Notes: generated by a model from the sequence alone, not told the origin. A stretch of 64,000 nucleotides of DNA from Alphaproteobacteria bacterium (GCA_017471705.1 JAFUSH010000034.1:43934-107933), one strand, 5' to 3'; shown: positions 45,144 to 64,000, counted from the stretch's first letter. Translations and numbers: made by a program.

Positions 45144-45191
45144 CGTATTTTCCTATAATACACGTTAAAATTGAAATATCAACATCGGATT

Positions 45192-47077: not shown

Positions 47078-47309
47078 TCAATTTAACACTCAAAGAGTAT
47101 ACCGAAGTTAAACAGAGATATATTTCTTATCAGTTTATTAACCTTTTGGTGTTATTCGTGGTGTGTATAACTGGTGTATTGTAGAAATTTTTGTGAAAAT
47201 TCAGATTGATATAGACAAATGGGATATATTTTAACAAAAGTCTGGAAATTTTTTGTAAAATGATTTACAATAACAGTGTGATTAAGAATATATGTTAAGG
47301 AGAACTGAA

Positions 47310-47743: not shown

Positions 47744-48064
47744 ATGTTGTGCAATAGTATAAAGAGATTTTTGTACGAGAACAGATATGCAATTATCTTA
47801 TTTGTTTCTTTATTCTTTTTCATAACCGATGCCTCTGCTGAGACATTCGGTGCATTATCGACTGCCGGCACGGCAATTTTTCAGGGCTTGCGCAAAATTA
47901 TATATCCGGCGGCTACCATAGGTATAGCCTGTGTTTGTATCGGAGGTATGTTCGGCAGTTTTAACTGGAAGTGGTTAGTGGCAATTCTGTTGGGTGTGTT
48001 TATTATAGCCACGGCTAATTCCGGAAACGGTGTGGATGCTATTGCTATGGACGGCAGTAATTAG
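47744..48064 (+). CDS. virB2: VirB2-family pilin, paralog 2
   Basis: The same architecture (signal; ATIGIACVCIGGMFG...WKWLVAILLGVFIIA). GGAGG RBS. Confidence 0.65.
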   Translation: MLCNSIKRFLYENRYAIILFVSLFFFITDASAETFGALSTAGTAIFQGLRKIIYPAATIGIACVCIGGMFGSFNWKWLVAILLGVFIIATANSGNGVDAIAMDGSN

Positions 48065-48074: not shown

Positions 48075-48473
48075 ATGAAAAGAATCGGCGTATTATGTTT
48101 TTTTATTTTAATTTGTTGTGTTGCTTTTGTTTCTCCGGCATTTGCCGAGCCTTCATCCGGTGATGCTATTTGGACTAAATTAGCTGGCAAGGCCAGTACT
48201 ATAGGGGTAGGTTTGCAGAAAAGCGGCTTTATTATAGGCGGTATCGGGTTAATCTTTTTTTCATTTATGGCAATTTTTAACAAGATATCGTGGAAGAATC
48301 TTGCCTATATTATGCTGAGCTGTTTTGTGCTTTCGGCAATGGTTGCATTGGTTAATTATTTTTCGGCAAAAGATGCAACCAGTACGGCTTCGTACTCAGA
48401 ATTTAACGGTCCTGACGGCGAGGTTTCTTTTGAAGGAGGCGTAGCTCCTGCCGGAGGGACGGCGCATAAATAG
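48075..48473 (+). CDS. virB2: VirB2-family pilin, paralog 3
   Basis: Signal MKRIGVLCFFILICCVAFVSPAFA and two hydrophobic helices. RBS AGGAGAATGCAGATG. Confidence 0.65.
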   Translation: MKRIGVLCFFILICCVAFVSPAFAEPSSGDAIWTKLAGKASTIGVGLQKSGFIIGGIGLIFFSFMAIFNKISWKNLAYIMLSCFVLSAMVALVNYFSAKDATSTASYSEFNGPDGEVSFEGGVAPAGGTAHK

Positions 48474-48482: not shown

Positions 48483-48923
48483 ATGAGGTTGTTTGCTTGG
48501 CTGAGTGCTTTTTGTTTTTTTATATCGGTATCCCCTGCTATGGCATACATAGAAGAAGATACTGCCGGAATGACGGAAGCAGATGCCGGTGAGCAGAATA
48601 CCAATATGTATAAACTGAATGCACGCGGTGATTATTTTATCAAGAAACTGAAAAAAATAGATGAATATGCCAGTAAAAATAGTCGGTATGAAGTGCCTAA
48701 TCTGTCCGATATAAATGACATAAACAGTTTTGAACAAAAGAATAAGGAAGAAGAGCAAAATAAATTGATTTTAGCCGACGTGGTTAAAATGACGTCTAAT
48801 CCGCAACAACTGAAAGTTATTCTTAAATCCGATGTTTATACGTCATTGACGGCTATTAACGAAGTGCGCGATGCACAAGTTGCATCGGTATTGCAAAGAC
48901 AAATTGCCGGAGGACGCCGATGA
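48483..48923 (+). CDS. small secreted protein (146 aa) between the virB2 paralogs and virB3
   Basis: Signal peptide MRLFAWLSAFCFFISVSPAMA, then a hydrophilic Lys/Glu-rich body. It overlaps the virB3 start by 4 bp. Confidence 0.45.
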   Translation: MRLFAWLSAFCFFISVSPAMAYIEEDTAGMTEADAGEQNTNMYKLNARGDYFIKKLKKIDEYASKNSRYEVPNLSDINDINSFEQKNKEEEQNKLILADVVKMTSNPQQLKVILKSDVYTSLTAINEVRDAQVASVLQRQIAGGRR

Positions 48924-49210
48924 GAGAAGAGATTCTGAAAGCGGTTGCGCAACCTCCGAAAGTACTGTGGGCTCCGATGGTACCTGCTCTCATAAATTTA
49001 GGCGTTCAGTTTCCGATGATGTTTATCGGTATGGGTATCGGCGGAGCTAACCCGCTGTATTTTGTTGCTTGTATTATAATTGCGCACGCCGTGTTGGTGG
49101 GGTTGGGAATAAAAGAGCCGCATTTGTCCACAATGCTGCAGGCTTACGGTCAGACATACAGAAAAACAATAAATCTTTATGTGGTAAAGGGTAATAAGTT
49201 TGAGCCATGA
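48920..49210 (+). CDS. virB3: type IV secretion system protein VirB3
   Basis: 96 aa, two TM. LWAPMVPALINLGVQFPMMFIGMGIG is VirB3-like. Translationally coupled to virB4. Confidence 0.75.
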   Translation: MREEILKAVAQPPKVLWAPMVPALINLGVQFPMMFIGMGIGGANPLYFVACIIIAHAVLVGLGIKEPHLSTMLQAYGQTYRKTINLYVVKGNKFEP

Positions 49211-51636
49211 ATGAATACGATTTTTTCAGCATATTTGTGCAAGGATTAAACAATATTCAGGTAGCTGTAACGGTAATAGGTATTATTGCCGCGGCTTCGT
49301 TTTCGGTTTTATTGGTGACCAAATTCGGTAATTGGGTGTTGCCGCAACCGAGAGAATCACGGGTTTCAGACTTTTTGCCGTTTCAAAAATTGATGTCCGA
49401 CGGAGTTACCATTCAATGCAGTAACAATTCCTATGCCCGAGTATTCAGATTAGATGGTGTTGATTTATCATCTGCGACCAACGAAAAAGTATATTCTATG
49501 ATGGAAGCGCGGAAGGCGTGGATTGACGATATGTCAAATATGCAGGTAATATGCCGTATTATAACCACCAGAGACAGAGCTTCGTTGGAAAGTGAAAAAC
49601 GCGACTTCGGTAACAAATTGCTGGAAACTGTTTCAAAAATTTGGTATGAAGGGATGAACCGCGTTTATGAGAACAAACACTATATTGTTCTTTCGGTTAT
49701 TGATCGTAAAGACGCCTTGAAGGATTTGAACTACGCATCTCAAAGTTTGATATCTACATTGGGAGAGTATGGGGTAAGTCCTATGTATGAAAGTGATACC
49801 AGCAGTCCGCTTGATAGTCCGTTTTATTTGTTTTCTCATCTTTGCAGTCCGGTTTCCAAACCGACGCCGAAGGTTCGTAATACCGGCGGGGCGCGGATGT
49901 GCGAAATGCTTACGGCTGACCATATTCATTTTACGGAAGAGGAAGGAATTATTCATTTTTTCTCGGGTGACAGCGATTTGTTCGAAATTGTTATGGGAAT
50001 TCGTGTCAGCGGTGAAGCAATGGATGAAAGTATGATATATTCTTTGAACGCCATTGATTGCGAGTTGGTAATATTGCACAATATCAGACCGTTTTTCAGG
50101 GCTGAGGCCAGAGGTTTGTTAATGCAGCAACAGCGTATGGCAATGACTACGAGTTTGTCGGGAGGAGTGGTGGAGCAATACGCCGCGGCTCTGGCTTCAA
50201 TTGATGACAGTGATAATGACTATCAATCGCTGTGTGAATATTCAATGAGCATAATAGTAAAAGGAGCTTCAAAAGAAGAGTTGGATTTCGGAGAATCTGA
50301 AGTACAAAGAATATGCCGTTCTTTCGGTGTTACTCCGGTTCGGGAAGGCTGGGTAACGCAGGCAGTGTTCTTTACGCAATTTCCGACATACGATACTTAC
50401 CCGAGAACTTATCGCTATCTTTCACGCGTTATAGCTATGGCAATAACTATGGATAAACCTGCCGAAGGCTTCGGAAAAAGCGACTGGGGAAAAGGAGCAA
50501 TTACCATTTTCCGCACAATGTCCGGTTCGGCATATCGTTTCCAATTTCACGTAAGCAGTGAAGAATCGGCAGTGGCTCACTGTTGTATTATCGGTCCTAC
50601 CGGTCAAGGTAAAACAACGTTGTTGACATTTTTGGCCGGTCAGGCGATGCGGCACGGTGATTTGAAAGTGTTCTTCTTTGATCGTCACTTAGGTGCGCAA
50701 ATATTCACTCGAGCCGTTAAGGGAGCATATATCGGTTTTGACGGTGACGAAAAAAATGTTTCGCTTAATCCGTTTGATTGCGCAAATACCGCGGAAAACA
50801 GAGCGTTTTTACGTCGTTGGCTGAAGTCTATTACTATGATTGATGATGCTTTGGCCGATCGCGAAGTTTCTCGTGCGGTTACGACTGCTTTTGATTATTT
50901 ACGTCCGGAAGAACGTTTGTTGAAGAATCTGTATAAAAGTTGCTTTTCTCCGACCGGAAATATGCGCAGAGAGCTGTATCGTTGGGTAAATCCGGATCAA
51001 TACGGAGCTATTTTTAACGGTCAGGATGACAGTTTGGATTTGAAGAGCCGGCGCTTTATGGCTTTCGATTTCACACATATTTTTGAAGATGAGAATTTGG
51101 CTCCGGCGGTAATCAGTTACATTATGCACCGTATTCAAGCCGAAACCGGAGAAACCGGCGTTCCGTCATTGATCATGATTGATGAAACGGCGCCAATGCT
51201 GAAGCACCCGATGTTTAGAGATTATTTCATTATAGGTTTGCAAGAAGGACGTAAGAAACGTCAGGCTTACTTATGTGCGTTCCAACAACCTAACATTGTA
51301 GATAAATTGGGCGTGGGCGAAGTTATTCGCGGTCAATGTCAAACGGTTATTTTCTTCAGAAATCCGCAAGCACAACCCGATGATTATGCTAACTGGAATT
51401 TGACGCAAAATGAGCTTGATTTTATATTCGGTAAGAGTTACCGCGATTTTCCGTATGCCATACTGCTTTCCCGACCTGTTACCGGAGAATCGGTGATATT
51501 GGATGTTAATTTGGGCGGTTTGGGTAAATATCTGCGAGTTTATAACTCAGGTCGTAAGAATGTGTTGTTGGTTCAGCAGCTTATCCAAGAGTACGGCGAA
51601 GATAACTTCCTCACGAAATATTTGGATTTCTCATAA
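49207..51636 (+). CDS. virB4: type IV secretion system ATPase VirB4
   Basis: 809 aa. Walker A IIGPTGQGKTTLL, Walker B LIMIDETAPM, VirB4/CagE/TrbE domain order. Confidence 0.9.
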   Translation: MNEYDFFSIFVQGLNNIQVAVTVIGIIAAASFSVLLVTKFGNWVLPQPRESRVSDFLPFQKLMSDGVTIQCSNNSYARVFRLDGVDLSSATNEKVYSMMEARKAWIDDMSNMQVICRIITTRDRASLESEKRDFGNKLLETVSKIWYEGMNRVYENKHYIVLSVIDRKDALKDLNYASQSLISTLGEYGVSPMYESDTSSPLDSPFYLFSHLCSPVSKPTPKVRNTGGARMCEMLTADHIHFTEEEGIIHFFSGDSDLFEIVMGIRVSGEAMDESMIYSLNAIDCELVILHNIRPFFRAEARGLLMQQQRMAMTTSLSGGVVEQYAAALASIDDSDNDYQSLCEYSMSIIVKGASKEELDFGESEVQRICRSFGVTPVREGWVTQAVFFTQFPTYDTYPRTYRYLSRVIAMAITMDKPAEGFGKSDWGKGAITIFRTMSGSAYRFQFHVSSEESAVAHCCIIGPTGQGKTTLLTFLAGQAMRHGDLKVFFFDRHLGAQIFTRAVKGAYIGFDGDEKNVSLNPFDCANTAENRAFLRRWLKSITMIDDALADREVSRAVTTAFDYLRPEERLLKNLYKSCFSPTGNMRRELYRWVNPDQYGAIFNGQDDSLDLKSRRFMAFDFTHIFEDENLAPAVISYIMHRIQAETGETGVPSLIMIDETAPMLKHPMFRDYFIIGLQEGRKKRQAYLCAFQQPNIVDKLGVGEVIRGQCQTVIFFRNPQAQPDDYANWNLTQNELDFIFGKSYRDFPYAILLSRPVTGESVILDVNLGGLGKYLRVYNSGRKNVLLVQQLIQEYGEDNFLTKYLDFS

Positions 51637-51739
51637 TTGCTGATTTTGTATGCTGCGATCTACGGTGCTCTCTATGAAGTCGTTCCTCGCACGATGCAGT
51701 ACATTCTGCGTCAAGGAATCTGACCTTTCAACGTATAGC

Positions 51740-52040
51740 GTTGCTTCTGATTTCGCGTCATTCTGAACCCTGAGCATAGCGAATGGGTGAAGAATCCATT
51801 TCGTTCCGCCGGAACGAAACAACGCCATCGGCGTTGCTGGATACTTCGCCGCCAATGCGGCTCAGTATGACGATAAAAAGTCAGCGTTGCTTCTTTATTA
51901 TTTAATCGGAAGATCCTCTGATTTTTGCTTTTGGTCACAAAAGCAAAAAAGGGATGACTTTATTGTTATATTTTAGTCGGAAGCCTCTCTGACGATTCCT
52001 GCGGAATCGAGGGGTGACTTTATTATCTTTATAGTAATAT
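51740..52040. repeat. structured intergenic element with a 22-bp perfect palindrome, a long-range imperfect inverted repeat and a degenerate ~60-bp tandem duplication
   Basis: ATTTCGTTCCGCCGGAACGAAA (51798-51819). CGTCATTCTGAACCCTGAGC versus GCTCAGTATGACG. Units AATCGGAAGATCCTCTGA...GGGATGACTTTATTGTTAT and AGTCGGAAGCCTCTCTGA...GGGGTGACTTTATTATCTTT. GC-enriched relative to the flanks. Confidence 0.4.
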
Positions 52041-52226
52041 CTCCGAATGCACGGTGAAGTAAATTGGTCAATATTCTTAATAATAGACAATTTGTCCATT
52101 AAAATGTAACAAAAATTTAACATTTTTTTTATTAAAATTGTGATACACTAATAAAAGGAGAATGGGTTTACTTTGCGCTGAAGATATGTTAGCATAAGAA
52201 TATCTGGGCACTACAGGGAGGTTATT

Positions 52227-53453
52227 ATGATGGTAAATACAAAGAGATTCAATATTTTGGCCGGCGTTGCCTTTATGATAACGTTTGCGGCGCCTGATGC
52301 AAAAGCTTTTCCGTTGCTTTGTGGGGATCCTTCCCGTTTAGTAGCCAGCGCTAAGGTTACAATGCAGGAAATTATGATAATCAAGCAAGAAGTTGAGAGT
52401 AATCTGCGAATCATTGAAGAAATTCGCAACGGTGGCTTTGCCGCAGCCGGTGCGATGATTTTCGAGAAAATTCAAAACGGTGATTATGATCGCTTCGGTA
52501 AAGCTTTGAGTAATGTTAAAACCAATGCGCAGGATATGGCACATAATGTGGCGGAACGTGAAGAAAGAGCTAAAAGGGAAAAAGAGCTGAGAGAAAGCGG
52601 TATGAGCGCTAAAGAAGCTAAGGCTAAGGCTCAACAAGAATCCGCCGAGAGAATGGTAGAATGGCAGAAAAAACAAGACGAAGCCAGAGAAAAAGCTAAA
52701 TCTGAGCGCGGTTCAAACGCTTTTACAAATTCGTATAACTGGCTGAAAAATAATCAATCATTTACCAGCGGCGCCAGCACTGCTTTAAGAGGTGTTGACA
52801 GCGGCAATTGGGGACAGGCTTTAAGCGGTGCGGCAGGTGCCACCGGAGGTGCAATCAACAGCGGCGGCGAATCCACACTCGGAAACATTTTCCAAAATGC
52901 GGCAGGCGGTGCCGGAAATGCTCTGAACAGCGCGCTTGACGGCAATTGGGGTAATGCCTTTAATGCAGCGGCCGGAGGCGCCGGTTCCGCAATTGGCGGC
53001 GCGACTGGATCCGAAGGTATCGGTAATACCATCGGTGCGATTGGTAATATAGGCGCCGGTGCTTATGATGCTATCAGCAGCGGCGATGGTTTCGGCGGTA
53101 CCGTAAATAATTTAATTAATAACAACCAGATAAACTCCGGACTTACCGGTTTAGAGAACGGCTATAATCAAACACAGGAAGAGCGCGAGGCCGCGCTTAA
53201 AGCTCAAGAAGAAGCTGCGAAAAAACAAGCCGAGGAATTAAAAAAAGGATTAGACGAACAGATAAAGAAGGATCAAGAAGAGAGAAAGAAAGAGCAACAG
53301 AAAAAATGTCAGGAATGCCGTAAAAATGCTCAAGCCGGAGCAGAAGCTGCGGCGAAGGCTGCCGGTAAAACGGGATTGGCGGCTCAAGCAGATGCAGAAG
53401 CAAGGGTTAATAGCCAATGTTTAAGTGCTTGCGGTGGTTTTTCAGGTATGTAA
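52227..53453 (+). CDS. secreted coiled-coil / glycine-rich GNWG-repeat protein with C-terminal CxxC...CxxxC motif (paralog A)
   Basis: Signal peptide, an N-terminal coiled coil, two ~47-aa Gly/Ala/Asn repeats (GNWGQALSGAAGATGG...; GNWGNAFNAAAGGAG...), a Lys/Glu coiled coil, and a C-terminal CQEC...CLSACGG. Confidence 0.6.
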   Translation: MMVNTKRFNILAGVAFMITFAAPDAKAFPLLCGDPSRLVASAKVTMQEIMIIKQEVESNLRIIEEIRNGGFAAAGAMIFEKIQNGDYDRFGKALSNVKTNAQDMAHNVAEREERAKREKELRESGMSAKEAKAKAQQESAERMVEWQKKQDEAREKAKSERGSNAFTNSYNWLKNNQSFTSGASTALRGVDSGNWGQALSGAAGATGGAINSGGESTLGNIFQNAAGGAGNALNSALDGNWGNAFNAAAGGAGSAIGGATGSEGIGNTIGAIGNIGAGAYDAISSGDGFGGTVNNLINNNQINSGLTGLENGYNQTQEEREAALKAQEEAAKKQAEELKKGLDEQIKKDQEERKKEQQKKCQECRKNAQAGAEAAAKAAGKTGLAAQADAEARVNSQCLSACGGFSGM

Positions 53454-53465
53454 AGGAGCAAAACA

Positions 53466-54740
53466 ATGAAGAATAAAATATTAAACAGAATCTTATTTTT
53501 AACAGTTATTTCGGTAATGGTATTGCCCCTTCCGTACACAGTATCGGCGCAGACATTTACACCGCCGACTAGTAATGATGATCCGATTGACGGCGGTTCT
53601 ATCGGTGAAGTTGTGGTTACAGGCAAGAAACCTACATATACGGCGAATTTCAGCGGATTTAATCCTACTCCGCTGGATGGAGCAACTATCCCGACCATAA
53701 ATGTTACGGCAACTGCTCCTGCTCCTGTTGTCACTTCAGATGGTAATGATGATCCGATTGACGGCGGTTCTATCGGTGAGGTTGTGGTTACAGGCAAAAA
53801 ACCTACATATACGGCGAATTTCAGCGGTTTCAATCCTACTCCGCTGGATGGAGCAACTATCCCGACCATAAATGTGGGTAATTCTTATGACGGTCCGAGT
53901 GAAGAAGATGGAGAAGAAGGCACTGCAGGTGAGAGCTATACAATGACTTCGACTGTTCGTACGAATGATAACGGTAGTATAAACGAAACTACGGACAGCA
54001 GTTCATTTACAATAACCGACGGCGGAACAGGAAATGGTACAGATTTATCTGCAGCAATCGCCAATGCTGGCGGTAATATAGTTCCGGATCCAACGACTAC
54101 AACTATTAATCCCAGTGATGTAAAAATAGATAATTTACCGCAGCCGACAACTACAACGGTAAAGGAAGAGGAAGATTTAAGTCAGTATACCGGTTTGTAT
54201 AACGGTCGTCAGTTATTACCGGATATTATGGCGAGACATTGCCGAATTAAAGGTGAAGATGTTGCTAAAGATGTAAGTTTGTATGTTGAATGTATCAAAC
54301 AGTATGTTTCGGAAATGAACAGTTCCAATGCGGCGGCAAAAGCTAAAGCTCAGGAAGAATTTGAGATATTGCGTTATAAAGGATTGTTGGATATGGCTTC
54401 CAATGCGATGACCAAGTCGCAAAGTGTTCTCAATTATGAAAACACGATGAACGAATACAATAAAGCTGATCAGGATATGCAGACCGAATTTGACGATAAT
54501 CACGCTTTGATAGCAACAATGTCGTTTATTACCGATGTTATGAACAGTTTCAGAGAACTGCAGGCTGAACAACTTAAGTATTTGGCGATAAGCGGTATTG
54601 TTAACGTTGATCCGGCGGTTGTTTTGGCAGATGAAGAAGAGGAAGAACCGGAAGAAAAGAAACCTGCATCAACAAACGGTAATGCTGGAGATGCGGAAAT
54701 ACATACCACGGAAGCAAATACCACGATTAAACATAATTAA
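53466..54740 (+). CDS. secreted protein with a 57-aa tandem repeat, a Thr-rich linker and a C-terminal helical domain
   Basis: Signal peptide. The unit NDDPIDGGSIGEVVVTGKKPTYTANFSGFNPTPLDGATIPTINV occurs twice. PTTTT linkers and an acidic tail. Confidence 0.6.
   Translation: MKNKILNRILFLTVISVMVLPLPYTVSAQTFTPPTSNDDPIDGGSIGEVVVTGKKPTYTANFSGFNPTPLDGATIPTINVTATAPAPVVTSDGNDDPIDGGSIGEVVVTGKKPTYTANFSGFNPTPLDGATIPTINVGNSYDGPSEEDGEEGTAGESYTMTSTVRTNDNGSINETTDSSSFTITDGGTGNGTDLSAAIANAGGNIVPDPTTTTINPSDVKIDNLPQPTTTTVKEEEDLSQYTGLYNGRQLLPDIMARHCRIKGEDVAKDVSLYVECIKQYVSEMNSSNAAAKAKAQEEFEILRYKGLLDMASNAMTKSQSVLNYENTMNEYNKADQDMQTEFDDNHALIATMSFITDVMNSFRELQAEQLKYLAISGIVNVDPAVVLADEEEEEPEEKKPASTNGNAGDAEIHTTEANTTIKHN
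53571..53876 (+). repeat. two 135-bp near-identical direct repeats (53571-53705 and 53742-53876) inside a coding region
   Basis: About 5 mismatches over 135 bp. The 171-bp period is in frame. Confidence 0.8.
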
Positions 54741-54778
54741 CTGACTGCAGGGAAACTAGAACGGAGGGAGATGGAATT

Positions 54779-56422
54779 ATGAATAAGAGAATGTTAGCAA
54801 TATTCATTGCCGCAGCGCTGGTAGTTTTTCCGAAAACCTCCAAGGCCGATTTGGATGTACTGTCTATTGCCCAAGATCAAATAACGTCAATTACGGAAAA
54901 AGTCGGTGCTATTGTTAAAAAATATACGCAAATTCAAGCAAGTTTGCAGGAATTGAGCTTAAACCGTAATATTGTGTCGCAGTTGAAGGATAAAGTAAAA
55001 TCAGAATTAAAGTCAAGAGCTATGGCTTTTTACGGAGATTTGAAAGATATGGCAATGGCGGAAGGAATGGCATTTCTGAAAACTTCTTTAAGCAGTGTGT
55101 CGTTACCGGGGGTCGGTCAATACATCGATTTGGGAGGCTTTATTAATCCGAAACTGACGGTGGCAGTCGGCAAAACTTATTTAAAGAAAAAGCATAAAAA
55201 GAATGATGTACAAAGTACTGTGGCGCAAGATGAGCGCAGTAACAATCTGATGATAGATAATTTATCTGTTTTATTTGCCAACAGTTTGGTTCGTCGTAAG
55301 CAGATTATAGAAGAAGATCCTTGCAGTTGCGTTGCCGAAGCAGGCAGAGATTGCAGCGAAGAAAAACAAAAATGTGAAGATCAAGAAAAAGAATTTAATG
55401 AAATGAGCGATATCAATGTTGTAAAGAATAAACAGTATGGAGTTATGCTTAACGCTAATCATCGCTGGTTAAAAATTAAAGAAGCGGTTGCAATGTATGC
55501 AAAGATGAAAGGCGAGGCAATGATGAATCAGGGTAATATAGATGATATCAGTGCTATAACCGGTGAAATAGAAGATGAGGAAGAAGAGGATGACACCGGT
55601 GAAGATGCAGTTCAGGCTTTAATGCAAAACAAAATCAATCCGTTGGATTTGACGAATTCAGTGAAAGACAGTTTAAATAAAATTAAAAGCGGCGATTATA
55701 CAGGTGCTTTTGCCGGCGCAATGGGGACAGCTACCGATTTATACGGTAATGCTCCCGGCAGTTGGGATAGTGTTACTAAAGCTATGCAAGAAGTTACCAC
55801 CGGTGCAGGTGCTTTGAATAATGCTTACCATAATGCCGAGAACGGAAACTGGGGCGGCGCGCTTAATTCAGCTTTAGGCGGTGCCGGAAATATTGTAGGA
55901 AGTACCGGTAATGAAGGGTTGGGTAATATATTCAATAATGCCGCCGGAGGAGCCGGAAACGCGCTTAACTCTGCACTTAGCGGAAACTGGGGCGCGGCCA
56001 TAGGCAATGCGGCAGGCGGCGCCGGAAATGCAATCAGCGGTAGCGGTAATGATGTTTTGGGCAGTTCAATCGGTGCGGTCGGAAGTTTAGTTAATGTCGG
56101 AGTAAATGCGGCAAATGCCGGCGGAAATTTAGGCGATATTATTGATAACACCGTGGGCAACAGTCAAGCTCAAGGAGCGTTGAATGCATTGTATGGTGCG
56201 TATGATGCGCAAAATACGCAAAACGCGGCCATTGTAGAAGCTCAGCAAAAAGCGGAAGAAGAACGTAATAAAAAATTTGAAGAAATGAAAAAACAGCAAG
56301 AAGAAGAGATGAAAAAGCGCAAGCAGGCTGAGTGCAAAAAATGCAATGAAGATAATGAAGCTTTGTTAAAAGCGGGCAAGCCGCTATCATCGCTCAAATC
56401 TTGTATCGGTGTTTGTATGTGA
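54779..56422 (+). CDS. secreted coiled-coil / glycine-rich GNWG-repeat protein with C-terminal CxxC...CxxxC motif (paralog B)
   Basis: Signal peptide, a VirB5/TrbJ-like N-terminal coiled coil, a mid Cys cluster CSC...C...C, and GNWGGALNSALGGAGN.../GNWGAAIGNAAGGAGN... repeats that resemble paralog A at the DNA level. C-terminal CKKC...CIGVC. Confidence 0.6.
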   Translation: MNKRMLAIFIAAALVVFPKTSKADLDVLSIAQDQITSITEKVGAIVKKYTQIQASLQELSLNRNIVSQLKDKVKSELKSRAMAFYGDLKDMAMAEGMAFLKTSLSSVSLPGVGQYIDLGGFINPKLTVAVGKTYLKKKHKKNDVQSTVAQDERSNNLMIDNLSVLFANSLVRRKQIIEEDPCSCVAEAGRDCSEEKQKCEDQEKEFNEMSDINVVKNKQYGVMLNANHRWLKIKEAVAMYAKMKGEAMMNQGNIDDISAITGEIEDEEEEDDTGEDAVQALMQNKINPLDLTNSVKDSLNKIKSGDYTGAFAGAMGTATDLYGNAPGSWDSVTKAMQEVTTGAGALNNAYHNAENGNWGGALNSALGGAGNIVGSTGNEGLGNIFNNAAGGAGNALNSALSGNWGAAIGNAAGGAGNAISGSGNDVLGSSIGAVGSLVNVGVNAANAGGNLGDIIDNTVGNSQAQGALNALYGAYDAQNTQNAAIVEAQQKAEEERNKKFEEMKKQQEEEMKKRKQAECKKCNEDNEALLKAGKPLSSLKSCIGVCM

Positions 56423-56439
56423 TAAGGGAGGACAAGGGT

Positions 56440-57705
56440 ATGAAAAAATATAATAAAAAGATTTTAATACTTGTAGCCGTTTCTTATCTGTCGGTGACTG
56501 CTCCGGCAATGGCTGTAACCAAATTGGAAGCTACAGGACCGGCTGCCGATATTGTTAACAAAATTCAGAAAGTTAAAGAAAAGTTCGAAGATATTCAAAC
56601 AAAGATAATGAAGGAGAAGGAAAAGTGGACCAAAAAGGCAGAGGCTTTCTTGGATAAAACACTTGGAACCGAAGGCGCGGCTTTGTTTAAGCAATATGTT
56701 GTAGAACCGGGAGCCGGTATTGTTAAAAGTGTTGCTAAAGGTCAGTATAACGCAGGTGATTTCAGTTTAAGCGGGTTTACCAGCGCCATAAAATCGGAAC
56801 TTGGCAATTACAAACTTGATTTTGCAACTTTGGTGTCGCAAGCAAAAGATATGGCTAATACTGCGGCCAAAGCCAGACTTGAAAAGAGCAGAGCCATTGA
56901 AATTCAAGTTGCTAAGCTGCAATCTGAATGGGATGCAAAGAATAATCTTAATGCAACCGTGAAGTCGGCTCAGTTGGAAGCAGAACTTGAAGAATTGGCT
57001 AAAAGAATATCTGGATTGAAAGAGCAAGCGGCTCAACTAAACAATAAGACGCTTGAGGAAACCGAAGCTCAAAAGAAAATGCAGGAAAAGATGGTGGCAA
57101 TGCAGGATTTGATGGCAAGTTACAGCGGTAAAATATCTCAGGATGATTTACTTAAAAAACTTAATGCCGAGGCAATGTCATTGTTCACGCTTAAAACCGA
57201 TGAAGAAGAAGATCAGGCGATATATTCTGCCAGTATGGAAAAGCTGTTTTTAGGTAAGTATGATTTCGGAACATCTGAGAATTTGGCGAGAATTCGCCGC
57301 GCTCGTCAGGAAGAATATTATAAGTCCGAAAAGAATATTCTCAAAGTTATTGTCGAAACTTATAACAGTATTGAAAATACCGAACAAAACATAAAAGGCT
57401 GTACGCAGGCAAGCGGAGAAGCACAGGCTATATTCGGCGGCAGTGCTATGCGTGTATGTGTCGATGTTCAGATAATAAAGATAGCAGCACAATATATGGA
57501 AATGTTATTGGCGCAAATTCAACAGGAAGCCAGTTTGGAGATTCAAAACTGGGCGGATATATACAAATTACCGGATTACAACCGTGATTATACCAAGTTT
57601 AATTTGGATGATTACGTTCTGACCAAAGATGACCTGAAAAAGAATTTGAAAAGTATGGCAACCGGAGCCATCGGTGATGCAATGATGAAATTTAAAGGTT
57701 TTTAA
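56440..57705 (+). CDS. secreted coiled-coil protein (421 aa)
   Basis: Signal MKKYNKKILILVAVSYLSVTAPAMA. GGGAGG RBS before the ATG at 56440. Long helical heptad regions and two Cys. Confidence 0.55.
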   Translation: MKKYNKKILILVAVSYLSVTAPAMAVTKLEATGPAADIVNKIQKVKEKFEDIQTKIMKEKEKWTKKAEAFLDKTLGTEGAALFKQYVVEPGAGIVKSVAKGQYNAGDFSLSGFTSAIKSELGNYKLDFATLVSQAKDMANTAAKARLEKSRAIEIQVAKLQSEWDAKNNLNATVKSAQLEAELEELAKRISGLKEQAAQLNNKTLEETEAQKKMQEKMVAMQDLMASYSGKISQDDLLKKLNAEAMSLFTLKTDEEEDQAIYSASMEKLFLGKYDFGTSENLARIRRARQEEYYKSEKNILKVIVETYNSIENTEQNIKGCTQASGEAQAIFGGSAMRVCVDVQIIKIAAQYMEMLLAQIQQEASLEIQNWADIYKLPDYNRDYTKFNLDDYVLTKDDLKKNLKSMATGAIGDAMMKFKGF

Positions 57706-57717
57706 GAGAGGTGTGAA

Positions 57718-60700
57718 ATGAAGAAAATAGTTTATTTTATATCCGTTTTAATGACTTGCCTTTGTCTTAACCGCAATGCGCAGGCGTTTGTATGGCCGGA
57801 TTTTACGCCTCTGATTCCGTTTTCTCCGCAATTTTGCGTTATGTGTATTCCACCGGCGATTGATTGGGCATATAATACCGTTGACCAAGTTAAAGATGCG
57901 AAGAATCGTTTGAAAGAAATGACCGACGTGACCAAAATTAAACAGGCGCTTTCGGCATATGCGGCAAATCTCGGAAATATGGCGCTTAATTGGGCAACAC
58001 AAAAATTATCCGCACGCAAAAAAGTTATATCGTATTCCCGTACCATTATGGATAGTGAGCGCGAGGGAGTGGATGTAAAAAAAGAAGATTCGGTTAAAGT
58101 TGATTTCGTAAATCTGTTTTTGCAGTATCCTTCGACTAAAAATAAAATAAAGAAAGCATATCAGAAAAAAGGAGATGCCATTAAAACCGATACATCTCTT
58201 GAGATGTACATTACCGCTTCCGAAATGATGAAAGAATTATGCGGTGCTAAGGGTAAAGGATGCGAATTAGCAACTACTTTAGCAGATTACGACGGAGATG
58301 TAAGCACCGAATTTAAAGATTTTAAAGATATGGGAATGATGTTGCAATTAAGTCTGGTTGAGCAATGCTTTATGCAAGGTCAATATTGTGGTTTAATCGG
58401 TACAATCGGTTGCGAGCCGGGTAAAGATGGAGACAGTAGTGCGGAGCCGTCGGAAGAACAACCGACAGAGGGAGAAAGCACCGATGAAGATAAGGTTTGT
58501 CACTGGAAGGCCAGTTTGCAGCTAGCCCGTATGTATGATAAAATTATGCGCTACAATGAAATGCTTGTTTATATGCAGTATCAGTATGAAGCTGTTAAAG
58601 GTATTGATACTCTGGCAAAAATCAGAGCTGCTAAAGAAAATGAAGGTACTAAGGGTGAGCAAGGTGCTTTTCTTATGGATAAATATTTGCCGCAAAAGAA
58701 AAATGTGGCCTACAGCACATTATCAGACACTTTTGCGTTTGCCGATGAAGAACTCACAGATGAAGATTTAGAAGAGTTTTCTAAATATGAAAAAAGTATG
58801 TCCAATCGCGAAAATGTATTGGGCGGCAACTTTGAAACTCTTAAAGAAGCAAAAGGTTTTGAAACGGTTTTGGATGATAAAAAAGATGATCTTGCCAGTA
58901 TGCAATTTTTGGAAGAAACCAATAAAGCACTGAAAGATGCATTGGTATATCACAATATGAAACAGATGTTGCCCGATTACAGAGGCACATTTAAAACTTT
59001 AAAACAAGCCGAGGAATATCACGATAAGACTGTGGAATATTTACAGGATTCCGGCGAATGTATAAAGGGATATTTGGAACCTCATTACAATAATCCTGCT
59101 AAAGTGTGGTTTGGTGAAGGGTGTGATTATTTTGACCAAGGAACCATATATTGTCACTATTCACCGGAAAAAGAAATAAATGACAGTGAGGAAAGCAAAG
59201 GTTTGTATGATGAGCTGTGTCCGGACAATCCTCAATATAAGTGTTTTATTCAAAAACTGGAAGAAAGCGATATGAATAAAGGTGTTGCCGGAGCTTTGTT
59301 AGCTTTTTATAATGAAGGCAAAACAGCTGATGCGTTGCAGGAAACTCAGACTTATCTCAAAGAGGGCGAACAGTCACCGGAAGTTGAAACAGAAAAAACT
59401 TCGGAAAAGTCATATACCGCTCAGGTTACCATAGAAGGCGGAGATGAGGTTTCCGGAGATAAAGAAACGTATGTTACCGGTCGTGATGATTCTGCGATGA
59501 TGGGCAGGGATAACGCCAATGCCTCAGATGTGTTGCCGAGTGCCAGTTCGGTTCAAGCAAAAGCAAAGACTACTCGTGATGATCAGGAAGCCGATGAAAA
59601 TATAAAAGATCCTAAGGCTGCCGAGAGTTTGGCCGATGAGACACGGAAAGGACACCTGATGAATTGGATATGGGGTGCTACTATGGCTAATGTCATTTCT
59701 GCCGATTTAGACAGTTCTTCTCCAAAATTCGGAACACGTAAAAATAAGTTTCCGTTATGGAATGACCAGAAAGAGTTTTATGACCAATATATTGACGGCA
59801 AATATGATAACATTTCTCAATATATGGAAAGAGCTCCGATGCCTGATGGTATTATGAGTGCTGCCGAGGCGATAAACGAAGTGTATAATTATCCTGAGAT
59901 AGTTAAAGAAATAAAAGATGCGTTAGGCAATGTAACGGATACGATTACGGTGACTAAAGATGAACAGCAGGGATTTATAGCTGATGCTATAGAAGCTGTT
60001 AAGGATGATTTTAAGGATGTAAAAGACGAAACAAAAGAAACAATGGACAGCTTGATTGAAACGGAAACGGCTGAGCTTGAGGCGTTAAAAGCAGAACATA
60101 ATGCCAAGATTAGTAAATTATTGGAAGAAAAAGAATTGCTTCAGAGCCGTTTGGGACAAACCAATAGGGATTTGGATGCCGCAAATCAGGCATTTAATAA
60201 TGCCGGAGGAAAAATAGCTTCTTCAGTAAATACCGACAGAGCAACTAAGGAAAATGACGAAGCGAATAGAGAATTGCAGGCTAAGTACCGCAATCCGGTG
60301 GATTTATCCCAATCTCCGGCAAATAAGAAATTTGCGGGGATGAAGGCGGAAAGCGCAGAAAACAAAAAAGCTGCCGAAGCCGAACTTAAAGCCAAAGAAA
60401 AAGAAGCTCAAAACTTGGAAAAGAGTTCGGAAATGTTGGCTAAGTTGCTGAAGGCTAAAAAAGAAGAAATTGAAAAAGAACGCCGTCAGTTTGTTAAAAA
60501 ATACAGCGAAGCCGAAGAAAATGCCCGCAACGGATTTAATGATAAGGTGGAAGCTTATCTGGAAGAAGGTGTCGTTCTGAAAGATGAAGATGTCACTGCT
60601 ACTATTGAAAATGCAATAGTAAGAGCATCTGAGAAACTTTCCAAAGAGTTGTCAAGTCAGTATGGTACGGCGATTTCTATTGAACTGCCGACTGTAGCAG

Positions 60701-62379
60701 CAAGCGGAGCCGGACAAATGATTGCCTGTCTGCGTGAAAAAGCATCGCAAACTGCCAAAGATACGAAAGAGCAGGATATGAATTCGCTGAAAGCAAACGG
60801 CAAAATATATTATAATGAGTATGCGCCGGATGTTACGAATAAACACAACTCAATGATTAATAAAATGAAGAGTATAAGCGAATGTGCAATCGAAGGCGTA
60901 CCTTCCGAACCTATAGCCGAAAAAGTTTTCGGAGATATGTGCGATTCCGTTAATTGTACTACTCCTGATTTAAGCAAAGACGAAAACGGTTTGATAAATT
61001 ATTTTGTCGGTGCTTTGGGTGTAAGAGATGACTTGAAGGCTCCTACTCCGCCGGTAGCATTTTCATCGGCGCCGATGCGTGAAATTTTCCACTTTGATAT
61101 TGCTGACTACGAAAGTATTGAGAAGTATTACGAAGATGATGAGCCGAAAAATCCGAGCAGTTCGGATATTACCATAACGGCAGAAGGTTTCTTGAAGTTG
61201 GGTGAGGATATGCAATCCGGTCAAAAAGAGGCACAACAGAAATTGGAAAATCAAGGCGAAGTGGCCGGAACATTCCCTGAAATATGGAAGTATGTATTGA
61301 GACGTCATACTTACGGTCAAAAACAATTTGATCTAAAGAGGCTGTTGGGCAGTAAGGAATTAGGTGATGATGTTCGCGGTAATCCGGATAAGAGTTATTT
61401 GCGTTCAGGCAGTTTCCCTTGTTATATTGATAACAATGTAATTGATGCTTCGGCGGTGGTTAAATTGGTAGGTTTCAGACTTGTCCCGAATAATTTCAGC
61501 TATTCGATAAACAGTACGCCGGATAAGGATTTGTATACTAAAGTTCCGTGTAAAGGGTTGTTGATTAAAAAAGGAAGAGTGTTTGATTTTACGGCTGACG
61601 GAAGTCCACCTAACGGCGTACCTGTAAACGGTGAAGGAAGTATCAGCGAAACCAGTGAATTAGGAACTATTTTAGGATATGTTCCTGACGCAAACAATAA
61701 TATAGTGCGAGTTCTATTCGGTCACGGAATACCTACGGATATGAGCAAGGCTCCGCGTAAGCTGACATTTAATTCTACGCTGCAAAAAGCTGTGAATATT
61801 ATTTCCGAAACGGAAGAATTAGGCGAAGATAAAAGTAAAGATGCGGTATTCTATATGGCTAACCGCACCTTGCTTGACCGCAATCAGTTCGGTGATTATT
61901 TAAATCAGGTAGAGCAAGAAGCTATAGCGCGTGAATCTTTGGCGAAAATTCAAAACCAGATAGATGAGATATTGACAAATCTGCAAGATGTTTTTTACGG
62001 CACCGGTATTGTTATATCTGATGAGTTTAATTTACTGAATGATGATGATTATAAAGAGGCTGCCGAGGCTTTGGATGAACAAAAGCAAATATATCTTAAC
62101 AGAGCCGAAACGGAAATTCAAAAAGTTAAGGGTGTTTCCGAGACGGTAAAAAACAAGACGGAAACGCTTTTGAAGACCATTGCCGTTTTACGTGCGGATA
62201 GCGATGAAATTATTCATTTGAACGGCGGTGAGGATATAAATCAGGTTAAGTCCAGAATAGCCAATCAGAGTGCTGATAATTCGGTCGGAGATGAATATGA
62301 AAAAATGGGTGACGAAGCTCATCTGCGCCGGATAAGAGATTTACAGCCTCCTTTCTGTGAAGTTCATCCTTATAAATAA
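57718..62379 (+). CDS. giant secreted cysteine-rich coiled-coil protein (1553 aa)
   Basis: Signal MKKIVYFISVLMTCLCLNRNAQA. About 24 Cys, many in CxxC/Cx(n)C pairs. A central ~400-aa Lys/Glu coiled coil. No TM helices. Confidence 0.6.
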   Translation: MKKIVYFISVLMTCLCLNRNAQAFVWPDFTPLIPFSPQFCVMCIPPAIDWAYNTVDQVKDAKNRLKEMTDVTKIKQALSAYAANLGNMALNWATQKLSARKKVISYSRTIMDSEREGVDVKKEDSVKVDFVNLFLQYPSTKNKIKKAYQKKGDAIKTDTSLEMYITASEMMKELCGAKGKGCELATTLADYDGDVSTEFKDFKDMGMMLQLSLVEQCFMQGQYCGLIGTIGCEPGKDGDSSAEPSEEQPTEGESTDEDKVCHWKASLQLARMYDKIMRYNEMLVYMQYQYEAVKGIDTLAKIRAAKENEGTKGEQGAFLMDKYLPQKKNVAYSTLSDTFAFADEELTDEDLEEFSKYEKSMSNRENVLGGNFETLKEAKGFETVLDDKKDDLASMQFLEETNKALKDALVYHNMKQMLPDYRGTFKTLKQAEEYHDKTVEYLQDSGECIKGYLEPHYNNPAKVWFGEGCDYFDQGTIYCHYSPEKEINDSEESKGLYDELCPDNPQYKCFIQKLEESDMNKGVAGALLAFYNEGKTADALQETQTYLKEGEQSPEVETEKTSEKSYTAQVTIEGGDEVSGDKETYVTGRDDSAMMGRDNANASDVLPSASSVQAKAKTTRDDQEADENIKDPKAAESLADETRKGHLMNWIWGATMANVISADLDSSSPKFGTRKNKFPLWNDQKEFYDQYIDGKYDNISQYMERAPMPDGIMSAAEAINEVYNYPEIVKEIKDALGNVTDTITVTKDEQQGFIADAIEAVKDDFKDVKDETKETMDSLIETETAELEALKAEHNAKISKLLEEKELLQSRLGQTNRDLDAANQAFNNAGGKIASSVNTDRATKENDEANRELQAKYRNPVDLSQSPANKKFAGMKAESAENKKAAEAELKAKEKEAQNLEKSSEMLAKLLKAKKEEIEKERRQFVKKYSEAEENARNGFNDKVEAYLEEGVVLKDEDVTATIENAIVRASEKLSKELSSQYGTAISIELPTVAASGAGQMIACLREKASQTAKDTKEQDMNSLKANGKIYYNEYAPDVTNKHNSMINKMKSISECAIEGVPSEPIAEKVFGDMCDSVNCTTPDLSKDENGLINYFVGALGVRDDLKAPTPPVAFSSAPMREIFHFDIADYESIEKYYEDDEPKNPSSSDITITAEGFLKLGEDMQSGQKEAQQKLENQGEVAGTFPEIWKYVLRRHTYGQKQFDLKRLLGSKELGDDVRGNPDKSYLRSGSFPCYIDNNVIDASAVVKLVGFRLVPNNFSYSINSTPDKDLYTKVPCKGLLIKKGRVFDFTADGSPPNGVPVNGEGSISETSELGTILGYVPDANNNIVRVLFGHGIPTDMSKAPRKLTFNSTLQKAVNIISETEELGEDKSKDAVFYMANRTLLDRNQFGDYLNQVEQEAIARESLAKIQNQIDEILTNLQDVFYGTGIVISDEFNLLNDDDYKEAAEALDEQKQIYLNRAETEIQKVKGVSETVKNKTETLLKTIAVLRADSDEIIHLNGGEDINQVKSRIANQSADNSVGDEYEKMGDEAHLRRIRDLQPPFCEVHPYK

Positions 62380-62390: not shown

Positions 62391-63146
62391 TTGGTTGAAT
62401 TAGGCAGAATAGAAGTAAAAAAGAAATTGATAGCCGGAAACTATCCTTCTCAGAGGCAGAATGATAGTCAGGTTCAGTTTTTATCAGAACTCAGTGAGGC
62501 CGATAGATCATCAAAAGAAGTCTATTTTCGTTGGTTATCTCGTTTGGTTATGCTCTGTGCCGTTGTGTCATTAAGTTTCTTTTTGAGCTCGTCATTGGTA
62601 ATATTCAGATTGGCTCCGGAGATTATTGTGGAGCCATTGCTGCTGATAAGGCAAAATGATTCGGAAAGTATGGTGAGATATGAGCCGATTACTACTAAGA
62701 TGCCGTCAATTCGCCAATTTACGGAGATGTTTATAAGACAATATGTTATTATGCGTAATACGGTTATTAATGATGAACAAGAGATGCGTACGCGCTGGGG
62801 ACCCGGAGGAATTGTCCATTATTTATCAATGCCGGATGTGTATGCTGATTTTGTGGGCTTAAATGCGGAATCCGTCAATAATATGTTTGATGACGGATAT
62901 TCCAGTGAAGTTCGGATAAATGAACTGGAAAAAGAGGAAACAAGTCCGGCGTGGTCAGTGATATTTACGGTTTACAACTTATCTAAAGATCGCAGCAGCA
63001 GCGGATCGCTCACTCTTAAAACGCAGCGATATAAAGCATCCATAACTCCTAAATTTATTCCTGAACGCAGTATGTACAGAGCACGTTTGATTAATCCGCT
63101 CGGCTTTACGGTTATAAAATATAATCAGAGCGAGATAAGAGAGTAA
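62391..63146 (+). CDS. virB8: type IV secretion system protein VirB8 (paralog a); possible TTG start
   Basis: A cytoplasmic N-terminus, a single TM (LVMLCAVVSLSFFLSSSLVIF) and a periplasmic NTF2-like domain with FTEMFIRQYVIMRNTV. Confidence 0.7.
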   Translation: MVELGRIEVKKKLIAGNYPSQRQNDSQVQFLSELSEADRSSKEVYFRWLSRLVMLCAVVSLSFFLSSSLVIFRLAPEIIVEPLLLIRQNDSESMVRYEPITTKMPSIRQFTEMFIRQYVIMRNTVINDEQEMRTRWGPGGIVHYLSMPDVYADFVGLNAESVNNMFDDGYSSEVRINELEKEETSPAWSVIFTVYNLSKDRSSSGSLTLKTQRYKASITPKFIPERSMYRARLINPLGFTVIKYNQSEIRE

Positions 63147-63292: not shown

Positions 63293-63481
63293 ATGTATAA
63301 AAAAATTTTGATTTTTGTTGCTTTTTTAATTTTATCAGCCTGTAGTTTATTCGGTTCTTATTATGAACCTGAAGCTGTGGGTATAGGTAAAGATATAAAC
63401 GAGTTGAAGTTATCTCCTTGTGCTTGTATGCAGATTGAGTTAATAAAAGAAGTTCCGGATTGGTTTTGGGAAACAATTTAA
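63293..63481 (+). CDS. virB7: small lipoprotein, VirB7-like
   Basis: 62 aa, lipobox LSACS. It lies between two virB8 paralogs, as in the Rickettsiales rvhB8a-rvhB7-rvhB8b arrangement. Confidence 0.45.
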   Translation: MYKKILIFVAFLILSACSLFGSYYEPEAVGIGKDINELKLSPCACMQIELIKEVPDWFWETI

Positions 63482-63495: not shown

Positions 63496-64000
63496 ATGGC
63501 GGATCAACTCGGTATAAACAGTACGCAACAGCGGCTTATCGGTTCGGAACAAACCAGAAGCGCTATGGCACAGCGTTCTCAGGTAAATCAACATTTGAAT
63601 CATAGTGAAGATTCATTTGTGGTAAATGCCAGTGAAAAAAGATATTTATGGACAGCTCGTGCTTTTGCCGTAGTTACCGCTATAAGCATTTGCTGCAATC
63701 TGCTGTTATTACTGACGGTGGCGAATATTTTGCCTCTTTATCGTGTTGAGCCGTATTTGTTGACATTATCTAATAAAGAAGAGCAAGTGTACCGAATTGT
63801 TCCTTACAGTAAAGATATGGAATCGCAAAAGTCTATAACGGAGACGTTTGTGAGACAGTATATTTTATTACGTACCACATTGCTGCCGGATATTGAAGAA
63901 ATGCAATCTCGTTGGCAAAACGGCGGCGATTTGCAAGAAATGTCTTCTCCGATTGTTTATCAAGATTTCCTGAAAATTACCGGTAACAAGTTTATGCAAA
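63496..64000 (+). CDS. virB8: type IV secretion system protein VirB8 (paralog b); 3' end lies beyond the window
   Basis: N-terminal cytoplasmic region, a TM (AFAVVTAISICCNLLLLLTVANIL), then ETFVRQYILLRTTL. The ATG at 63496 follows a GGGAAAAG RBS. Confidence 0.7.
   Translation, partial: MADQLGINSTQQRLIGSEQTRSAMAQRSQVNQHLNHSEDSFVVNASEKRYLWTARAFAVVTAISICCNLLLLLTVANILPLYRVEPYLLTLSNKEEQVYRIVPYSKDMESQKSITETFVRQYILLRTTLLPDIEEMQSRWQNGGDLQEMSSPIVYQDFLKITGNKFMQ

Follow-up and report, generated by a model that had tools for sequence, protein, structure and literature searches.

To our knowledge VirB6 is treated as indispensable in the type IV secretion systems (T4SSs) characterised so far. In the solved R388 machine the stalk from which pilin is assembled has VirB6 at its base and VirB5 on top. 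In this study we describe a T4SS operon on a 64,000-nucleotide stretch of DNA from an Alphaproteobacteria bacterium (GCA_017471705.1, JAFUSH010000034.1:43934-107933; this whole stretch is called the window, and coordinates count from its first letter). The operon is one tight run of + strand genes from 47.3 kb to the window end. Its VirB5/VirB6 slot, between virB4 and the first virB8, holds five genes for Sec-exported proteins, here named O1 to O5 (52227-62379). No VirB6 gene was found in or beside the operon, which would be an unusual build for a T4SS if none is encoded elsewhere.

The Trw system of Bartonella is free of VirD4, has multiple pilin variants and serves host contact rather than transfer, with diversified exposed pilus parts. 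Its trwL (VirB2) and trwJ-trwI-trwH (VirB5-VirB6-VirB7) genes are amplified into true paralogues, and VirB6 is retained. The locus described here resembles Trw in its several VirB2 variants (three) and in the absence of a coupling protein, since virD4 is missing at the locus. However, its five exported proteins belong to different families instead of being tandem VirB5 paralogues, and VirB6 is absent at the locus. A preliminary description of the window had compared the five genes to the amplified VirB5 copies of Trw; this analogy fails because the five are not mutual paralogues, the one common part being a C-terminal module in O1 and O3. In the Helicobacter pylori Cag system, CagH, CagI and CagL are Sec-exported, system-specific, pilus-associated proteins with no similarity to VirB5 and with a common C-terminal motif. 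In that system VirB9 is enlarged and VirB10 is a giant with repeats, while a polytopic VirB6-like protein (CagW) and a coupling protein are kept. The motif shared by CagH, CagI and CagL parallels the O1/O3 module, and a giant repeat-bearing VirB10 is found here as well, but no homology was detected: CagL came only at rank 4 in Foldseek, with a non-significant E=2.5. In Bordetella, the ptx genes for the five Sec-exported subunits of pertussis toxin lie in one operon with ptl, a T4SS without VirD4 and VirB5. Ptl keeps VirB6 (PtlD), and the ptx genes, which encode recognisable toxin domains, precede the ptl block. The likeness lies in five Sec-exported proteins sharing an operon with a T4SS that has no virD4 at the locus; here, however, the genes lie inside the structural block, no toxin domain was found and VirB6 is absent at the locus.

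The rvh system of Rickettsia is spread over five islets. Islet A consists of virB3-virB4 followed by a lineage-specific block, and islet C has the order virB8a-virB7-virB8b-virB9-virB10-virB11 with virD4 next to virB11 (PMC2653234). Its hallmarks are a polytopic RvhB6 in several copies and a duplication of VirB4 and of VirB9 (PMC11077975). Like rvh, our locus is a chromosomal alphaproteobacterial VirB-type system in which virB3-virB4 is followed by several lineage-specific genes and no VirB5 is recognisable (PMC2653234, PMC11077975). The virB8-virB7-virB8 arrangement reported in the preliminary description is real and equals that of islet C (PMC2653234); an ancient duplication of VirB8 is a further common trait, the two proteins flanking VirB7 sharing 32% identity here, although shared descent is not implied. 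Unlike rvh, where the block after virB4 consists of polytopic VirB6 paralogues, the block here encodes soluble Sec-exported proteins. The locus further has a single virB4 and a single virB9, no virD4 after virB11, three virB2 genes and one contiguous operon, and its giant VirB10 and extra repeat protein set it apart from rvh as described (PMC2653234, PMC11077975). The Rickettsiales baseline from which the preliminary description started is not supported: no evidence for a Rickettsiales host was found, the housekeeping genes are of free-living type, and multicopy RvhB6, duplicated VirB4/VirB9 and virD4 after virB11 were not seen at the locus. The virB8a-virB7-virB8b order makes the origin of rvh testable against a possibly non-Rickettsiales relative.

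Exported proteins in the VirB5/VirB6 slot

The five genes are O1 (408 aa, 52227-53453), O2 (424 aa, 53466-54740), O3 (547 aa, 54779-56422), O4 (421 aa from its ATG, 56440-57705, with an alternative TTG start at 56401) and O5 (1553 aa with 20 cysteines, 57718-62379), all on the + strand. They are separated from each other and from virB8a by gaps of 11-38 nt, the one between O5 and virB8a being 11 nt. Signals and transmembrane (TM) segments were called by hydropathy (Kyte-Doolittle, 19-residue mean), by inspection and by conservation across species. Each of the five proteins starts with a basic n-region and a hydrophobic core that lead to an AxA-type site, with predicted cleavage at AKA|F, VSA|Q, SKA|D, AMA|V and AQA|F for O1 to O5, and a signal peptide is kept in every homologue of these proteins from 24 other species. 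The preliminary description had placed five Sec-signal open reading frames (ORFs) between virB4 and virB8-virB7-virB8, and its coordinates, gene order and Sec signals stand. The number five holds for this window but is not fixed: related loci carry 4-7 ORFs in the slot, O1 or O2 being sometimes duplicated or split. As to the long coiled coils reported for all five, we found E/K/Q/A-rich stretches and weak coiled-coil noise in Pfam, and an all-helical AlphaFold prediction for O4 only.

The mature proteins are not polytopic. Their maximum 19-residue hydropathy is 0.80-1.45, compared with 2.28-3.20 and 45-86 windows of at least 1.6 each in four control VirB6 proteins from related plasmid systems. 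Among 109 homologues no multi-TM pattern was seen by hydropathy; four O4 or O5 homologues have one window above 1.6 (maximum 1.74). The Pfam TrbL/VirB6 model (PF04610), which detects divergent controls such as the VirB6 proteins of Roseibium (2.1e-7) and Paracaedimonas (6.7e-5), gave no match at E<=1 in O1-O5 or at E<=0.01 in 20 O5 homologues, and hhalign of O1-O5 against a 4-sequence VirB6 profile gave 0.0-0.1%. The search for VirB6 and VirD4 covered the whole window (64 kb) plus ~10 kb of sequence around related loci. Neither the window, nor ~5 kb 3' of virB11, nor ~35 related loci contain a VirB6-like ORF; the other polytopic ORFs of the window encode MurJ, ABC transporters, a cation-efflux protein and a T2SS-F protein. 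Since hydropathy, Pfam, hhalign and the survey of window ORFs agree, the claim that the five ORFs are secreted and carry no polytopic VirB6 domain is confirmed, and it extends to the rest of the window. Also virD4, a relaxase gene and virB1 are absent from the operon and its adjoining sequence.

The contig comes from a rumen/ruminant gut metagenome-assembled genome (MAG) labelled 'Alphaproteobacteria bacterium', and the locus is chromosomal. O4 and O5 match exactly the NCBI entries IJ532_05075 and IJ532_05080 ('MAG: Alphaproteobacteria bacterium'), and the nearest relative is labelled 'uncultured Rhodospirillaceae'. A scan of GTDB with an O4 profile, at one genome per species, returned 24 loci, all from uncultured rumen or human-gut MAGs and labelled Alphaproteobacteria save for a few generic or aberrant names (Proteobacteria, Pseudomonadota and one 'Bacteroidaceae' bin). 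Among uncultured Alphaproteobacteria from ruminant and human guts the system is widespread. The order virB2a-b-c, X0, virB3, virB4, 4-7 secreted ORFs, virB8a, virB7, virB8b, virB9, a giant repeat protein, a giant virB10 and virB11 is conserved, as far as the loci extend, across these 24 GTDB species and further metagenome contigs, with one exception (L012, where a separate virB2c was not detected). On contigs retrieved independently by way of VirB10, O5 is without exception the gene immediately upstream of virB8a. Even the most distant O5 homologues (24-26% identity) have the same gene arrangement, and VirB4 of the most distant members is 73% identical.

The genes of the operon differ widely in their rate of change. 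Cross-species identity is 85-96% for VirB4 (main clade), 79-96% for VirB7 and 61-95% for VirB8/VirB9, and falls to 21-48% for O1-O5 and 30-36% for X0, a small secreted protein encoded upstream of virB3. We compared nonsynonymous divergence (dN) between the window and its closest relative, L007; dN rather than its ratio to synonymous divergence (dS) was used because dS is saturated and dN/dS only rough. A test for positive selection by dN/dS was uninformative for this reason. The values are 0.016 for VirB4, 0.025 for VirB3, 0.020 for VirB7, 0.033 for VirB8b and 0.069 for VirB8a, against 0.086-0.184 for O1-O5, 0.138 for X0 and 0.136 for VirB2c. O1-O5 thus change at 5-10 times the nonsynonymous rate of VirB3, VirB4 and VirB7, on par with the VirB2 pilins. 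They are real, constrained genes changing at pilin speed, which is expected of exposed parts or of secreted products. With the conserved order, purifying selection and the rates of VirB2 pilins, the earlier suggestion of lineage-specific exposed proteins was borne out.

Orphan families and related plasmid systems

O1-O5 are orphan families. Pfam and NCBIfam searches with O1-O5, X0 and the VirB7-like protein returned nothing beyond coiled-coil noise, Pfam run member by member gave nothing relevant in 20 O5 homologues and 64 O1-family members, and when family profiles of O1, O4 and O5 were searched against PDB sequences, only low-complexity and coiled-coil chains came up. The AlphaFold models obtained for the O proteins are of low confidence and gave no fold match. 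When compared as mature profiles by hhalign, signal peptides removed, the five families show no relationship to one another beyond the C-terminal module that O1 and O3 have in common. Early signals of kinship between O1 and O4 (78%) and between O3 and O4 (45%) were lost on trimming and are therefore taken as signal-sequence artefacts. Comparisons of the O families with the plasmid 'Y' proteins, VirB6 and X0 were negative. In the literature we found nothing relevant on the T4SS of gut 'RF32'-type Alphaproteobacteria or on naturally VirB6-less T4SSs; as, in addition, the members are all annotated 'hypothetical' and have no Pfam family, the system is apparently undescribed so far.

Each protein combines recognisable parts. 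In O1 the signal is followed by a conserved N-domain of ~180 aa (FPLPTxD...IQNGGYAAA...GDYDRFG...YNWLK), by GNWGxA repeats rich in Gly/Asn/Ala, by a charged helix and by a tail that contains Cys. A full HMMER pass with the N-domain profile over 1.84 billion representative proteins gave only 69 matches and no bridge to VirB5; the family is a small closed set, many of its members being 180-250 aa long. In one protein of the representative library (P0093, 3579 aa) there are 23 repeats that match the IQNGDYDRFG region of the O1 N-domain (residues 81-115). O3 has its signal, an N-domain starting with ADLDVLS, the GNWGxA repeat module, a charged helix and a CxxC...CxxxC tail; the C-terminal module formed by the repeats, the charged helix and the Cys tail is 40% identical in O1 and O3 (hhalign 92-97%). 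O2 has a variable Thr/Gly/Asp-rich N-part after the signal, and only its conserved ~150-aa C-terminal helical domain can be aligned across species. Within the O2 gene there is a direct duplication of 133 bp (53572-53704 and 53743-53875, 97% identical) encoding a repeated module of ~45 aa. An apparent length difference of O2 between samples (288 vs 424 aa) was rejected as strain variation: it goes back to a scaffold gap of Ns at this repeat, because short-read assemblies break or insert Ns at the duplication. O4 is all-helical in its AlphaFold secondary structure. O5 has a conserved N-domain (WPDFTPLIP...) after the signal, a Cys-rich helix/sheet module, a charged helical middle and a mixed C-terminal domain. 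Its 41 homologous clusters are not named by any source, and one carries a beta-flower Pfam domain (PF21785) only. The AlphaFold model of O5 residues 24-560 has a confidence score (pLDDT) of 61.5, is confident only at ~423-543 and gave no fold match. In O2 and O5 conserved modules are paired with hypervariable ones.

The first gene of the slot differs in the most divergent sub-clade, represented by L030 and L043, where the slot has four genes. There a single protein of 510-519 aa (L030 5704-7233, L043 4216-5775) joins an O1-like N-terminus to an O2-like C-terminal domain (hhalign 96.5%). This joined form points to one ancestral gene that was split by fission into O1 and O2, or else to a fusion of the two.

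The preliminary description had ascribed VirB5-like N-termini to three of the five proteins. The Pfam VirB5 model (PF07996) matches none of O1-O5, none of the 64 O1-family members and none of the 20 O5 members, while the VirB5 of Erythrobacter is found at 6.8e-7. We also built a profile from seven proteins encoded at the VirB5 position directly 3' of virB4 in related plasmid loci, of which the Erythrobacter one passes PF07996. Against this profile the mature proteins scored 6% (O1), 16% over 83 columns (O4) and <1% (O2, O3 and O5) in hhalign, and O1 reached 27% with a profile of VirB5 paralogues. The positive control, the 420-450 aa VirB5 paralogue of the plasmids, scored 95.6%; since this protein is divergent, the test does see remote VirB5 relatives. 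Once the signals are removed, only O1 keeps an N-terminal likeness to VirB5, over ~30 residues (6% and 27%), and the O4 match lies elsewhere in that protein. Both O1 matches lie within the first ~30 mature residues, where hhalign pairs O1 residues 3-34 with VirB5 residues 3-37 at low probability. The consensus at the start of O1 is FPLPTxDxxR..QxxxIKQEIE (LIPTVDF in L030 and GLPTVDF in L043); VirB5 starts with GIPVxD followed by a long helix. O1 is, like VirB5, the signal-bearing gene directly after virB4, although O2-O5 bear signals too. The likeness, a hydrophobic-Pro-hydrophobic-x-Asp start and a long helix after the signal, is most evident in the divergent loci and appears to be a real motif that falls short of demonstrated homology.

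The closest VirB4 proteins in the plasmid collection come from large alphaproteobacterial plasmids of Microvirga (pMVF16-3, 37%), Sphingosinicella (p1, 34.5%) and Erythrobacter (E. aureus YH-07, 33.6%). All three plasmids have a MobA/MobL relaxase, a full virB2-virB11/virD4 set and, ahead of virB8, the SPCAC lipoprotein seen in the window. Homology of the VirB7-like protein to this lipoprotein was found at E 9e-11 for Microvirga and 1e-12 for Erythrobacter. In the slot after virB4 lie VirB5 and a soluble VirB5 paralogue of 420-450 aa (L005 20351-23218, L006 20424-22664, L038 6945-9090), so that the slot is again filled with signal-bearing or soluble proteins, and no TrbL/VirB6 was found in the T4SS gene clusters of the three plasmids. 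The Microvirga cluster has an extra protein of 228 aa with three hydrophobic segments and no Pfam match. The more distant systems of Paracaedimonas, Roseibium, Nitrosospira and Edwardsiella have a canonical VirB5 and a polytopic TrbL/VirB6. Because the three closest plasmid systems show it too, a soluble exported protein at the VirB6 position seems to be older than the chromosomal gut clade, and the plasmids of Microvirga, Erythrobacter and Sphingosinicella may carry VirB6-less conjugation systems. They differ from our locus in having one virB2, one virB8 and a VirB10 of normal size. Their loci look conjugative, although MOB-suite types the records as mobilizable or non-mobilizable. Their VirB5 and its paralogue are not detectably related to O1-O5, save for the N-terminal motif of O1.

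Machine parts, substrates or additions

Tentatively, at somewhat less than even chances, we favour the reading that O1-O5 (and probably X0 too) serve the T4SS as subunits, Sec-exported and specific to this lineage, in the VirB5/VirB6 slot of the operon. In its favour are the position and conserved order of the genes, their pilin-like rates under purifying selection, the pairing of conserved and hypervariable modules in O2 and O5, the soluble proteins in the same slot of the closest plasmid systems, the VirB5-like start of O1, and the lack of virD4, relaxase and virB1 genes in the operon. Their physical membership in the machine and their replacement of VirB5/VirB6 function are what we infer; their places would most likely be the periplasmic and surface positions of the canonical VirB5 and VirB6. 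Each protein would cross the inner membrane via Sec and lose its signal peptide. Conserved modules (the O1 N-domain, the O2 C-domain, the helical domains of O3 and O4, and the N- and C-domains of O5) might then dock on a core of VirB3/B4, the two VirB8s, VirB9 and the giant VirB10, and the variable parts would point away from the cell on a structure, pilus or other, that three divergent VirB2 pilins form at the surface. As the operon has neither relaxase nor coupling protein, such a machine would serve the gut Alphaproteobacteria as a contact/adhesion or contact-dependent delivery apparatus and not for conjugation. A locus without virD4, with three pilins, a giant repeat-bearing VirB10 and fast-changing exposed proteins suggests a contact apparatus aimed at a host, a protist or a bacterial partner.

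Several points weigh against this reading. No homology or fold evidence links O1-O5 to VirB5, VirB6 or another T4SS component: the Pfam, NCBIfam and PDB profile searches were negative, and hhalign stayed at or below 16% for VirB5 and 0.1% for VirB6. Position in an operon is no proof of membership either, as the pertussis toxin genes share an operon with ptl. Although dN/dS is <0.15 throughout, these values are rough, dS being saturated (>1). Finally, genes for a canonical VirB6 and a canonical VirD4 could lie at other places in the genomes, as they do in Rickettsiales.

The pertussis toxin case leads to the idea that O1-O5 are substrates exported in two steps, by Sec into the periplasm, perhaps assembled there, and then across the outer membrane without a coupling protein. 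Sec signals on all five, the lack of virD4 in or near the operon, and evolution as fast as that of effectors and toxins would fit, as would the precedent of five Sec-exported subunits co-operonic with the VirD4-less ptl. The Gly-rich repeat module of O1 and O3, with its conserved Trp and Cys tail, fits as well, and these Gly/Asn/Ala-rich GNWGxA modules could be membrane-inserting parts of a glycine-zipper or bacteriocin-like toxin; this is a matter of composition, however, with no family match. We nevertheless regard substrates, the main and a serious rival to our reading, as rather unlikely. The genes stand within the structural block between virB4 and virB8 in an order fixed throughout the clade, whereas substrate genes are usually peripheral and more mobile, and Pfam and NCBIfam revealed no toxin, enzyme or AB5 domain. 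Moreover, the missing VirB6 would be left unexplained because Ptl keeps its VirB6, PtlD. That the locus is a decaying or non-functional remnant with meaningless frames is highly improbable. In two related loci (L021 and L024) O5 or virB4/virB9 is split into two frames, but these splits occur in single MAGs and are possible assembly errors. The 1553-aa frame of O5 is maintained in >40 sequence clusters, dN/dS is low throughout and signal peptides are conserved in every homologue, and on these grounds decay was rejected.

A further explanation, partly orthogonal to the question of machine part or substrate, is that a polytopic VirB6, together with VirD4 and perhaps VirB5, is encoded elsewhere in the genome and that the five ORFs are add-on surface proteins or adhesins that landed in the operon of a conventional machine; Sec-dependent adhesins embedded in the locus were the alternative offered in the preliminary description. 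We consider this possible, with a probability that is substantial but clearly below even. Because virD4 is absent from the locus too, the operon would be an incomplete gene set if cytoplasmic substrates are translocated; the virB8a-virB7-virB8b order is that of islet C of rvh, whose genes are scattered over five islets (PMC2653234); and our view covers the window and the sequence around related loci described above. Yet all other structural genes from virB2 to virB11 are contiguous in one operon at every locus, none of the sequence surveyed around virB11 or in the related loci contains a VirB6-like ORF, and the three closest plasmid clusters lack VirB6 even with virD4 and relaxase alongside. 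Taking our favoured reading of O1-O5 as T4SS subunits further, the clade and possibly its plasmid sisters might have a T4SS architecture without polytopic VirB6, in which soluble, Sec-exported proteins belonging to families that occur only here make up the periplasmic stalk, the pilus base and the tip, and O1/O2, or their fused form, is a remote, split descendant of VirB5. We think this unlikely, yet not negligibly so. A conserved lineage whose virB2-to-virB11 operon has only soluble exported orphans in the slot would challenge the indispensability of VirB6: either its stalk or pilus base is built differently, or its genes are scattered as they are in Rickettsiales.

Other genes of the operon and its surroundings

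The operon opens with three virB2 genes on the + strand, which share 25-30% mutual identity and each match Pfam TrbC/VirB2. These are virB2a (126 aa, 47292-47672, 4.4e-8, with a signal and 2 TM segments), virB2b (106 aa, 47744-48064, 1.6e-10, 26% identical to virB2a) and virB2c (132 aa from its ATG, 48075-48473, 9e-7, its ORF opening with GTG at 48030). In L030 a 741-aa ORF (493-2715) with four hydrophobic segments and a VirB2-like piece lies upstream of virB3, in the place where the main clade has separate pilin genes. Between virB2c and virB3 is X0 (146 aa, 48483-48923, +), a secreted orphan with a signal peptide. It has no Pfam or NCBIfam match, scores <1% in hhalign with VirB5, VirB6 and O1-O5, and is 30-77% identical in related loci covering the region. 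It is followed on the same strand by virB3 (96 aa, 48920-49210, 2 TM segments, a weak Pfam VirB3 match of 0.0076), which overlaps virB4 (809 aa, 49207-51636), the ATPase gene (TIGR00929 VirB4_CagE 2e-112, Pfam CagE_TrbE_VirB 1.4e-14).

The spacer between virB4 and O1 (51637-52226) is 590 bp long here, while related species have 65-150 bp. Short direct repeats and a perfect hairpin of 12 nt lie within it, and an AT-rich stretch at its 3' end precedes a strong ribosome-binding site (GGGAGG before the O1 ATG). The spacer has no Rfam match, and scans of the region for tandem repeats, promoters/terminators and Rfam families all stayed at background level.

Downstream of O5, again on the + strand, virB8a (251 aa, TTG start, 62391-63146, Pfam VirB8 4.3e-12) is followed by the gene for the VirB7-like lipoprotein (62 aa, 63293-63481), which stands at the VirB7 position and has the lipobox LSAC besides the SPCAC motif. 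The 5' part of virB8b (63496-64000) leaves the window; the full gene encodes 250 aa and matches Pfam VirB8. Genes beyond the window were read from the identical contig in ENA and Logan assemblies. There virB8b is followed by virB9 (552 aa), one or two large 'beta-flower' repeat proteins and a VirB10 of 1412 aa, which has the same repeats as its neighbour plus a TrbI domain. In L002 (13540-20756) and L031 (4052-12916) the interval from virB9 to virB11 holds a protein of 1000-1800 aa and a VirB10 of ~1420 aa, both packed with beta-flower repeats (DxNGNVIGxV...; Bflower_2 1.6e-82 and 1.4e-45). The repeat-laden pair suggests a much enlarged outer or periplasmic complex. On related contigs obtained via VirB10, virB11 (327 aa, TIGR02788 4e-43) comes after VirB10. 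The operon terminates 3' of virB11, and the next gene is an opposite-strand yidC in three of the four loci reaching that far and a sensor kinase in the fourth.

The rest of the window is ordinary chromosome, with genes for shikimate kinase, RNase PH, an AddAB-like nuclease, TyrRS, UvrA, QueH, AnmK and an LD-carboxypeptidase. A type IVb-pilus-like cluster (35220-46841), mostly on the minus strand, stands back to back with the operon. It comprises a PilT-like ATPase (35220-36188, +), T2SS-F (36745-37866), a T2SS-E ATPase (37878-39689), PAP_PilO (41308-42555), a secretin (42572-44194) and TcpQ (44160-45143), together with two ORFs of ~545 aa without an assigned family. The cluster is reminiscent of the thin-pilus sets on some conjugative plasmids.

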